This document shows, one piece after another, positions 32,201 through 35,200 of a stretch of DNA of 64,000 bases. Numbering within the stretch: the stretch's first letter is position 1; the number at the start of each line of letters is the position of its first letter. The position numbers are program-made. Source of the DNA: Escherichia coli (GTDB lineage: Bacteria > Pseudomonadota > Gammaproteobacteria > Enterobacterales > Enterobacteriaceae); the NCBI RefSeq assembly GCF_003334335.1, contig NZ_QOWQ01000029.1, one strand, 5' to 3'.

Positions 32201-35200
32201 CGACCCAAGGTGAATGGGAACGCATAAAAATCTGTTATTTACATCATATGATCATCATGTTTATTGCGTGGTTTATAAGTATTGTTATTGCACACTCAAG
32301 GCCCTTTAGCTCAGTGGTTAGAGCAGGCGACTCATAATCGCTTGGTCGCTGGTTCAAGTCCAGCAAGGGCCACCAAATCATTATTTACGTATCAGGAAGA
32401 GTTAAGGGTACAAGGGGTACTCGATGGCGGTCTATATTTCATGACTAACGCCATTTCAAGGAAGAAGTGCGGTGGGTGGTTTCGAATGAGGGCTGGTGTT
32501 TTGGTACGTGGCACGCCACTGCAATGTATTTATCCATCAGTACTCATTCAAAAGTACCTGGAAAAAATGCCTGCTATGCCAAGCGGGCAAATTGCTTACA
32601 TGTGGAATTAAGTAATTAACGATAAAGCCAGAGTATTATCATTTATTATACCCCTTCATTTAATCAGGTTAATTACTCAAATCACTGAACTATTCTCTGT
32701 TCGCTCACTGATGATAAGTGAGTACCACAACCAATGTATGTAGAACAATGCCGTAGAGTAAGGATGAAATGTCTCTGCCACGCCTTAAACATCTACTACT
32801 GACCAGAACACCCGCCGCAGGCAGATGAGTTTTGTGAGCGTTACAGGAGCGTGGCTATGCTCATTAACCAACGCTATTGAGATATAAATTTCTAACACTT
32901 GAAAAACGATTTTCACTAATAAATTATAACGGTTTTTTTTATCATACAGCGAAATAACCTTTTGTTTATTAAATTTAACATTCCTGTGCTAATTTAATTA
33001 AAAGTTCCATGCGTAGCAAGTGAAGCAGTTAATGTCAGTAATTGTCTCAAATGAGCGTTTTTTTATAGTGACAAACAGTAATAACATTAAAAATAGCCAT
33101 GTAGACATTAATTGAGGAATAGACAATGTTAGTTAGTAAAAGCAACGGATTTAACGCTAGCGCAGTTTTGGGTAGTGGAAGTTATAATGAAAATAAATCT
33201 TCTAAACACATGGAGCTACTAGCTCATAGTATTTTAAAATTAATTTGTAAGGAAGCTGCATCAGAGACGTATCGCGGTGCTCTTGAAACTTTACAAAAAA
33301 TGATGTCTGAATGTATATATCAAGAAGGCAACGCCTTTGTCATTATGGGAGCTGGAGAGCAATTAAAACGTATTAAATATGAAGTTGGTGAAAATAACTT
33401 AAAGGTATTCAACGTACACTTTAATAATAATCACGAGTTAGTTAGTTCTGGTGAGCCTGACGTAATATGTTTAAGCAAGCAGGTCTGGGAAAATCTTCTC
33501 ATTAAACTAAAGCTGGAAAACAATGAAAATGTGTTTTCTGAAACTAAAAAATTATCGAATAAAAATAATGCCGATCAGTTTTTTGAATGCGCTAAAAGAA
33601 ATGAATAGAACCTTTTCGATAATATAAGAAAAAGTGATTTTCATGTTGGTTTACTTAAGCCAAGTAGTACGCGTAGTGTTATTTTAGAAACGCCGCCAAA
33701 TGTCTGTATGGAATCACGTAATTCATATGAAAACAAAATAGATGAGATTTCATCTTTGTCAGAGTCAAAGGAACACCCCATAGATATTCAAGAAAAAAAA
33801 GATGCGTTTGTGAATGAGTTCAAGGGGGTGTTATTTGATAAAAATACAAGGTCTTCAGAGCTTCTGTTTAATTTTTATGAGTGTTGCTATAAGTTTTTAC
33901 CAAGAGCTCAGCCTCAAGATAAAATCGATAGCTATAATTCAGCACTGCAAGCTTTTTCCATTTTTTGTTCATCTACGTTGACACATAATAATATAGGCTT
34001 TGATTTCAAATTATTTCCTGAAGTCAAGCTGTCTGGAGAACATCTTGAAACGGTATTCAAATACAAAAATGGCGATGATGTCCGGGAGATAGCCAAAATT
34101 AACATTACTCTCCAAAAAGAAGAGGGTGGTTTATATAATTTACGTGGATTGGATTTTAAGGGGTGCTTCTTTTCTGGACAGAACTTCAGTAACTATGATA
34201 TTCAATATGTGAACTGGGGAACGTCATTGTTTGATGTTGATACTCCGTGTATTTTTAATGCGCCTGCTTACAACAAGAGTAATGAAAAATCATTAAAACC
34301 TGTGAGCGAAAACGGTTTAAGTGGAGTATTGACTGATCGTAATAATAAAATAAAACTCATCACGGGCGTGGCACCATTCGATGATATTTTATTTATGGAT
34401 GATGACTTTGATGATAGTTCCTCTGAGGATGATCCCGTTGAGAATAGTCCTGTTGTGACTAGTCCCGTTGTATCAAGTTCTAAAAGCAGTTTTCAATGAT
34501 TAATAAATGGCAATTTTTACAAAGAGATAATAACGTAGATTGAAACAATATGTATTATTGATTGAGTAAACGGGATTATTCTTCACACTACATCCATTTT
34601 AGTGTCACTACCAAAGAAAAAGGGGCTACGTTTTCATGTAACCCCTTGATTTATTTGGTGGGCTGGCAGTGACTGAATTGGTGCTGTAATTGGTTGAAAT
34701 ATTTCATCTAATGTCTGGTTCAACTTTCCTTAGCTGCCTGAAAGTTTTTTGATCTTACCCAGCAATAACAGCGTTACGGTGCACCACGCCTGACTGAAGA
34801 ACTGCGTGCTCAGGGTTACCACTTCAACGTAAAACCGTGGCAGGAGGTCCGGACTGAAAAAACTGGTCAGGACATCATCGGCAGGGAACGCACTGCTAGT
34901 CTGTAAACTGAACCGACTGGGGCGCAGTATGTGGCATCTTGTCGTGCTGTTGGAGGAGCTGTGCGAACGTGGTATTAACTTTCGTGCTCTGGCCCAATCT
35001 ATATTTGCCCAACAATGGGGGGACGAATGCTGTAAAAGTAAAACAATCTGCGATCTCAAAGTTATTGTGTGATTTTTATGTGAGCAGAAGATATTCATCA
35101 GAAACGATTATGTAAATCATTTTATTTTGCCAACGGCCTCATTGTCGAAAGAAAAGAATACGCCCGTATTTCCTGAATGGATTGACTTTTTTATCCAACC

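Follow-up and report, generated by a model that had tools for sequence, protein, structure and literature searches.

The region upstream of ypjA, a gene of Escherichia coli that encodes an adhesin-like autotransporter, raises the question of whether this gene was once controlled by a DNA inversion switch. In the 64,000-nucleotide (nt) stretch of contig NZ_QOWQ01000029.1 analysed here, which we refer to as the window, two short and degraded pieces of coding sequence are located 390 bp upstream of the ypjA start codon, in the orientation of ypjA. One of them resembles the transposase of the insertion sequence (IS) IS3, and the other a DNA invertase of the Pin/Hin/Gin type. It had originally been predicted, from the sequence alone, that an IS had inserted into an invertase gene that subsequently decayed, and that an ancestral inversion switch for the adjacent adhesin gene was conceivable. 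Below, we show that both remnants are genuine, and we consider with high confidence that together they consist of pinH, a pseudogene already known, and an IS3 stub that has not been annotated, forming a non-functional scar in the variably present, low-GC block ygaQ-ileY-ypjCB-pinH-ypjA.

Both remnants are genuine and neither gene is intact

Several lines of evidence identify the first remnant as a piece of IS3. In one plus-strand frame, 20 of the 22 amino acids encoded by positions 34769-34834 match residues 62-83 of IS3 OrfB/InsF, which confirms the match that had been noticed originally, and at the DNA level the sequence 34755-34841 shares 88.6% identity with IS3 (E 3e-21 in a 28-Gb search). 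The orfB piece is internal to the element, but it is not all that is left of IS3: the 18 nt at 34750-34767 correspond to the tip of the left terminal repeat and are identical at 18 of 18 positions to the left end of the intact IS3 present in locus L010 (...AATAT / TGATCTTACCCAGCAATAGTGG...), with BLAST reporting a 100% match to the IS3 left end over 15 nt. An 18-mer is expected by chance about once per 7e10 positions. Because such an exact repeat tip is rare by chance, and because it is located directly beside the other IS3 piece, the boundary 34749/34750 is a genuine transposition end.

What is left of IS3 amounts to about 92 of its 1258 nt, namely the 18-nt tip and about 74 nt of orfB. Nucleotides 19-542 of IS3 are missing, such that the repeat tip is joined straight to nt ~543-618, and no further IS3 sequence is present in the 64-kb window. 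Thus, the stub shares with IS3 (OrfA/OrfB, also named InsE/InsF) the exact 18-nt left repeat tip and the 88.6% identity over 87 nt of orfB, but it lacks orfA, the frameshift site, the catalytic core and the right end of the intact element, and therefore cannot transpose. An active IS3 is about 1258 bp long, has both terminal repeats and carries orfA and orfB together with a programmed frameshift, a set of features that the stub does not have.

The second remnant is located in a different plus-strand frame, as had been proposed, and corresponds to the central part of an invertase of the Din family. Firstly, 38 of the 51 amino acids (75%) encoded by 34851-35003 match residues 44-94 of PinE. Secondly, the 79-codon pinH frame matches the Pfam Resolvase family (PF00239) with an E-value of 3.3e-9, over model positions 48-103 of 145. 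Thirdly, the stretch 34845/34851-34991 shares up to 85.8% nucleotide identity with intact prophage pinE genes (E 1e-37 in the 28-Gb search), and a comparison with phage and plasmid collections showed 83-87% nucleotide identity to the DNA-invertase genes of E. coli myoviruses, P2-like phages and phage-plasmids. Residual invertase similarity reaches to about 35021, past a 4-nt indel near the 3' end, and the match covers some 51-59 residues instead of the roughly 40 first estimated.

With respect to the 184-residue PinE, residues 1-42 and ~101-184 are absent. In serine recombinases of this family, the catalytic serine (about residue 9-10) is located within the N-terminal residues 1-42, and the helix-turn-helix DNA-binding domain within the C-terminal residues ~101-184. 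The remnant shares the central Resolvase-domain homology with Pin of e14, Gin of Mu, Cin of P1, Hin of Salmonella and prophage pinE, but about 59 of 184 codons are left, without the catalytic N-terminus, the C-terminal helix-turn-helix, the crossover sites, the invertible segment and the tail-fibre genes. Likewise, of what characterizes a functional invertase, part of the Resolvase homology is present, and an intact open reading frame (ORF) of ~180-190 codons with N-terminus and C-terminal domain, and a pair of crossover sites, are not. A protein search with the 60-amino-acid invertase fragment produced 19 hits, all of them E. coli fragments of pinH with a length of 48-97 amino acids, and no full-length orthologue. 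The earlier statement that neither gene is intact is therefore correct: the N- and C-terminal parts of the invertase and most of IS3 are gone.

Both matches are short (22 and ~51 residues), and short matches could be the product of chance or of low sequence complexity. However, the sequence is not of low complexity, the E-values of the DNA alignments and of the Resolvase match given above exclude that kind of resemblance, and the exact 18-nt IS3 terminal repeat directly adjoins the orfB piece. We consider the probability that the similarities are accidental to be negligible.

The scar contains the known pseudogene pinH

The locus corresponds to the ileY-ypjC-ypjB-ypjA-ssrA-smpB neighbourhood of E. 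coli, and the stretch 34500-35420 of the window is 100% identical to that of K-12 MG1655, where the same genes, ypjC, ypjB and ypjA, flank the scar. The MG1655 pseudogene pinH (b2648; NC_000913.3, 2783065..2783304) maps to window positions 34833-35072, and the end coordinate given for the remnants in the original prediction, 35072, is the end of this annotation. In K-12-like strains such as EC600, the Prokaryotic Genome Annotation Pipeline (PGAP) labels 34836-35003 as a partial "recombinase family protein" pseudogene. The pinH feature is thus already known and ordinary, and in the literature searched we found nothing on pinH beyond mentions in gene lists. The K-12 and PGAP annotations of pinH span only the invertase-like frame; the IS3 tip and the orfB piece (34750-34841) are unmarked, and the annotated start of b2648 falls 9 nt inside IS3-derived sequence.

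The internal junctions are deletion junctions

Alignment of the region to IS3 and to invertase genes, as the original prediction had recommended, places the breakpoints at 34749/34750, 34767/34768, 34841/~34843 and ~35021/35026. In a three-way alignment, IS3 homology stops at 34841 and invertase homology starts at ~34843-34845, 0-3 nt further on. Thus, the gap of about 50 bp that was thought to separate the two pieces does not exist at the DNA level, where the homologies abut. At this junction, a point internal to IS3 (~nt 618) meets a point internal to the invertase gene (~codon 43), and because two internal points are joined, it is a deletion junction and not a transposition junction. The other junction within the scar joins the two IS3 pieces, and there is weak similarity between the IS3-internal deletion end points (TTACCC.G..AA.A). 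To arrive at the scar, a minimum of two deletions is required.

These results bear on the proposal that an IS inserted into an invertase gene, which then decayed. The part that concerns decay of genuine genes is supported. The insertion itself is not established: the sole surviving IS3 end (34750) faces the spacer on the ypjB side, and this spacer shows no invertase similarity, so that IS3 may have inserted into the invertase gene but need not have done so. Searches of phage and plasmid collections with the spacer (34500-34749) gave no phage or plasmid match, barring E. coli chromosomes mislabelled as plasmids.

On its right side, the scar ends at most 5 nt from the start of a 355-bp module that is located upstream of ypjA and is also present at another locus of E. 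coli, ymgJ-ycgI. Identity to the ymgJ-ycgI locus changes abruptly from 37% (34991-35025), which is the random level, to 87% (35026-35100).

The scar behaves as neutral sequence

The composite was present at a coverage of at least 80% in 3004-3040 of 5426 complete E. coli genomes, and about 3006 records contain the ypjA-type module (at least 95% identity). On these genome counts, the same dead scar precedes the ypjA leader wherever this leader exists. The nine alleles that we used to determine diversity and the ratio of nonsynonymous to synonymous polymorphism (pN/pS) diverge by up to 11%, and all have identical junctions. Nucleotide diversity is 0.083 for the IS3 piece, 0.073 for the invertase piece, 0.074 for the adjacent spacer and 0.070 for the 3' end of ypjB. 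The pN/pS values are 1.30 for the invertase frame and 2.35 for the IS3 frame, several alleles have stops in the IS3 frame, and in different alleles the invertase frame is interrupted by independent stops or by a frameshift. Some alleles retain more ancestral residues, for example GDTLVV and SMRHL in that of strain PK8275, as expected from drift away from a Pin-like ancestor. The scar thus represents the neutral decay of a single old event.

It is conceivable that the scar has acquired a new role, either as a promoter or regulatory site of ypjA or as a gene for a small protein, encoded by the 79-codon pinH frame or by a 122-codon antisense ORF (34730-35098). The sense frame is open in four of the nine alleles, and one record annotates an 88-amino-acid protein; the antisense ORF, which is located on the minus strand and covers both remnants, is open in six of the nine divergent alleles, and in two further alleles the only difference is a frameshift within its final few codons. 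On the other hand, the diversity of the scar equals that of the neighbouring spacer, the sense frame shows no sign of constraint in its pN/pS, and it carries stops or a frameshift in several alleles. In addition, a consensus scan of 34400-35500 detected no plus-strand sigma-70-like site, and there is no Rfam match in 34300-35500. Co-option is therefore improbable in our view, and we maintain that the scar is drifting.

Two candidates that might have indicated a function were considered separately. The antisense ORF was rejected as a gene, since its pN/pS (0.64) is no different from that of control non-coding frames (0.53-0.80), and it is probably spurious; one record annotates a short minus-strand ORF within 34730-35098. 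The second candidate is a peak obtained with RpoS holoenzyme by systematic evolution of ligands by exponential enrichment, which is listed as "upstream of ypjA" at 2783272 (PMC5493296). This peak was rejected as a promoter within the scar because its position refers to the W3110 genome, where it is inside ypjC, at a distance of 1.3 kb.

An inversion switch at ypjA

The possibility that has to be weighed against a non-functional scar is that an invertase at this site once flipped a segment containing the ypjA promoter, making the adhesin phase variable, and that insertion of IS3 then killed the switch. The remnant precedes an adhesin gene by a short distance and shares its orientation, which is compatible with this, and it is generally known that serine and tyrosine recombinases control surface genes in other systems. 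In E. coli, the invertible promoter fimS is switched by the tyrosine recombinases FimB and FimE, and the autotransporter Ag43 is subject to Dam/OxyR phase variation. These systems resemble the proposed switch in having recombinase-based or epigenetic control upstream of an adhesin gene. However, fimS has intact recombinases and inverted repeats around the promoter, and the ypjA locus has neither, whereas Ag43 is known to vary without any invertase. Ag43 and YpjA have been listed in the same autotransporter group (PMC9289746).

Several results argue against such a switch. First, there are no crossover sites. In locus L005, where pinE is intact, the 26-bp crossover site (TTCTCCTAAACCAACGTTTATGAAAA) is located just upstream of this gene, at 3792-3817, and the matching inverted arm is found 1.8 kb away, at 1974-1993, inside a tail-fibre gene. 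When this 26-bp pix site was used as the query, no match with up to three mismatches was found in the 64-kb window, in agreement with the original observation that no intact recombination site is visible; the core motif of pix occurs only at 10391 and 31404, far from the scar, versus 0.71 occurrences expected by chance. The inverted repeats detected in 32000-41000 are short (14-22 nt, 76-94% complementary), scattered and chance-like, and none of them brackets 35026-35410.

Second, the nearest intact relatives of the invertase remnant are phage and prophage tail-fibre invertases, which are located beside invertible tail-fibre segments. Third, as judged indirectly from assemblies, some 3000 genomes show one collinear orientation: the 3004 assemblies that match 34500-35400 (at least 80% coverage) do so on a single strand, and among the matches listed all are in a single piece except one, which carries an IS1 insertion (H1). 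Fourth, the original prediction had suggested looking in related genomes for an intact invertase with inverted repeats flanking the ypjA promoter. Among the roughly 3,000 scar-carrying E. coli genomes, no intact invertase was seen at the scar site.

Fifth, the ypjA module starts where invertase homology ends, and it recurs without an annotated invertase. The 355-bp module upstream of ypjA (35026-35381) has a counterpart with ~89% identity at the ymgJ-ycgI locus (L007, ~2501-2859), next to minE, where only the final ~115 codons of a decayed autotransporter follow it, and the 5.4 kb of the ymgJ-ycgI locus that we examined contain no annotated recombinase. At least one copy of the module is present in 5290 of the 5426 genomes, with two loci in E. 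coli, and about 2,280 records that do not have a ypjA-type copy contain the ymgJ-type copy alone. Taking these results together, we regard it as very unlikely that ypjA was ever switched by this invertase.

A variant of this idea would be that an ancestor of the ypjA cassette was governed by a domesticated, phage-derived serine invertase of the Din type whose crossover sites were erased by the truncating deletions, or that the scar now serves as a regulatory spacer affecting ypjA silencing. We give this little credence, and continue to view the composite as a dead scar.

Part of the module itself is well conserved. The 184 nt directly upstream of the ypjA start codon (35227-35410) are almost invariant across the nine alleles (diversity 0.0075 for 35227-35381 and 0 for 35382-35410), and the flanks differ by 5-8%. 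Between the paralogous ypjA and ymgJ-ycgI loci, too, conservation is highest (95.8%) in one part of it, 35227-35346. PGAP annotates a 39-codon ORF at 35227-35346, but the five changes that distinguish the paralogues are all nonsynonymous, so the conservation does not appear to be that of a protein-coding sequence. The ypjA leader folds no better than shuffled sequence (z +0.94) and has no Rfam match. The conservation of 35227-35410 may reflect a regulatory leader or gene conversion.

A possible history of the scar

The following order of events, and the origin of the invertase from a prophage, are inferred. A phage-type gene of the Din family would have been at the site first, most likely as part of a prophage tail-fibre switching module. 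IS3 would then have transposed to the left of the invertase gene, in the same orientation. One deletion would have removed nt 19-542 of IS3, and may have been guided by the weak microhomology of the repeat tip and the internal site. Another would have extended from IS3 nt ~619 to invertase codon ~43, and the rest of IS3, the N-terminus of the invertase and anything between them would have been lost with it. The 3' half of the invertase gene would have disappeared at the breakpoint with the start of the ypjA module. All these events would have occurred once, before the divergence of the E. coli lineages that carry the block, and would have been followed by neutral drift.

It should be noted that several points weigh against this reconstruction. 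The order and number of the deletions cannot be reconstructed from the end product, and no intermediate genome was found that has an intact invertase, a full IS3 or a prophage at the exact site. The prophage origin rests only on similarity to the nearest relatives, over a piece of 140-180 nt that belongs to a highly conserved gene family. Finally, searches outside E. coli gave nothing informative: a search of genome contigs with YpjB for the locus in other species returned only two contaminant contigs identical to E. coli, and the named hits of a protein search with the YpjA N-terminus were nearly all from E. coli, mostly partial, and provided no usable context in another species.

A different configuration of the locus is present in strain CP61_Sichuan (L010, 12698-20705). 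In this strain, an intact IS3 is located ~200 bp from ileY and ypjCB-pinH-ypjA is absent, its place being taken by an island that is linked to ssrA and contains genes for an integrase and a large serine recombinase as well as ParB-like genes. It appears that a deletion associated with IS3 occurred at this locus recently, and that IS3-associated rearrangement is continuing here.

Organization of the locus and its surroundings

The features of the scar and its immediate neighbours are listed in Table 1.

Table 1. Position of the scar components and adjacent features (window coordinates)
Feature	Position	Strand	Basis or remark
End of ypjB	up to 34499		stop codon
Spacer from ypjB stop to IS3 end	34500-34749		hairpin/terminator-like site at 34620-34647
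IS3 left terminal inverted repeat, outer 18 nt, TGATCTTACCCAGCAATA	34750-34767	+	18/18; also the consensus of nine alleles
IS3 orfB internal piece, IS3 nt ~543-618, InsF residues ~62-86	34768-34841	+	nucleotide and amino acid alignment
Din-family (Pin/Gin/Cin/Hin) serine invertase, internal piece, codons ~43-100 of 184	~34843-35021	+	nucleotide and amino acid alignment, Pfam
pinH (b2648), annotated extent	34833-35072	+	MG1655 mapping
ypjA upstream module, 355 bp, outside the scar, sets its right breakpoint	35026-35381	+	paralogous to the ymgJ-ycgI leader
ypjA, adhesin-like autotransporter YpjA/EhaD, downstream neighbour	35411-39991	+	MG1655/EC600 annotation, ORF list

The hairpin in the spacer has a 10-bp stem (AAGGGGTTACATGAAAACGTAGCCCCTT) followed by a T-run on the minus strand, and it is conserved among the alleles. 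It may be a bidirectional terminator between ypjB and the scar.

To the left of the scar, positions 29200-34600, containing ygaQ, ileY and ypjC/ypjB, form a long AT-rich block with a GC content of 31-40%. The ygaQ-ileY-ypjCB segment is absent from about half of the E. coli genomes (stretch searched: 31600-34500), and the block is flanked by a tRNA gene and by ssrA, both of them classic targets for integration. In K-12-like strains ygaQ is interrupted by an internal stop and counts as a pseudogene, and it is intact in others; ypjC and ypjB (33126-34499) are the halves of one gene, ypjCB, of 491 codons, which is intact in strain WP8-S18-ESBL-07 and others and is split by an internal stop in the window, as in K-12. 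Downstream, 161 bp separate the end of ypjA (39991) from ssrA, which encodes the transfer-messenger RNA (40152-40514, minus strand). Unlike in MG1655, prophage CP4-57 is absent between ypjA and ssrA in the window, and 2524 complete genomes share this empty arrangement.

Significance

As an annotated pseudogene that behaves as neutral junk, the scar matters little in itself. What has been added is its precise anatomy, with a true left end of IS3 beside a scrap of an invertase gene, and a clear negative result as to control of ypjA by an invertase switch. For the annotation of E. coli genomes, the gain is that the IS3 stub can be marked and that b2648 is seen to start within IS3-derived sequence. 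In addition, the scar is a convenient neutral marker, according to which the ileY-ypjA block came together a single time, prior to the split of the E. coli lineages in which it is found.

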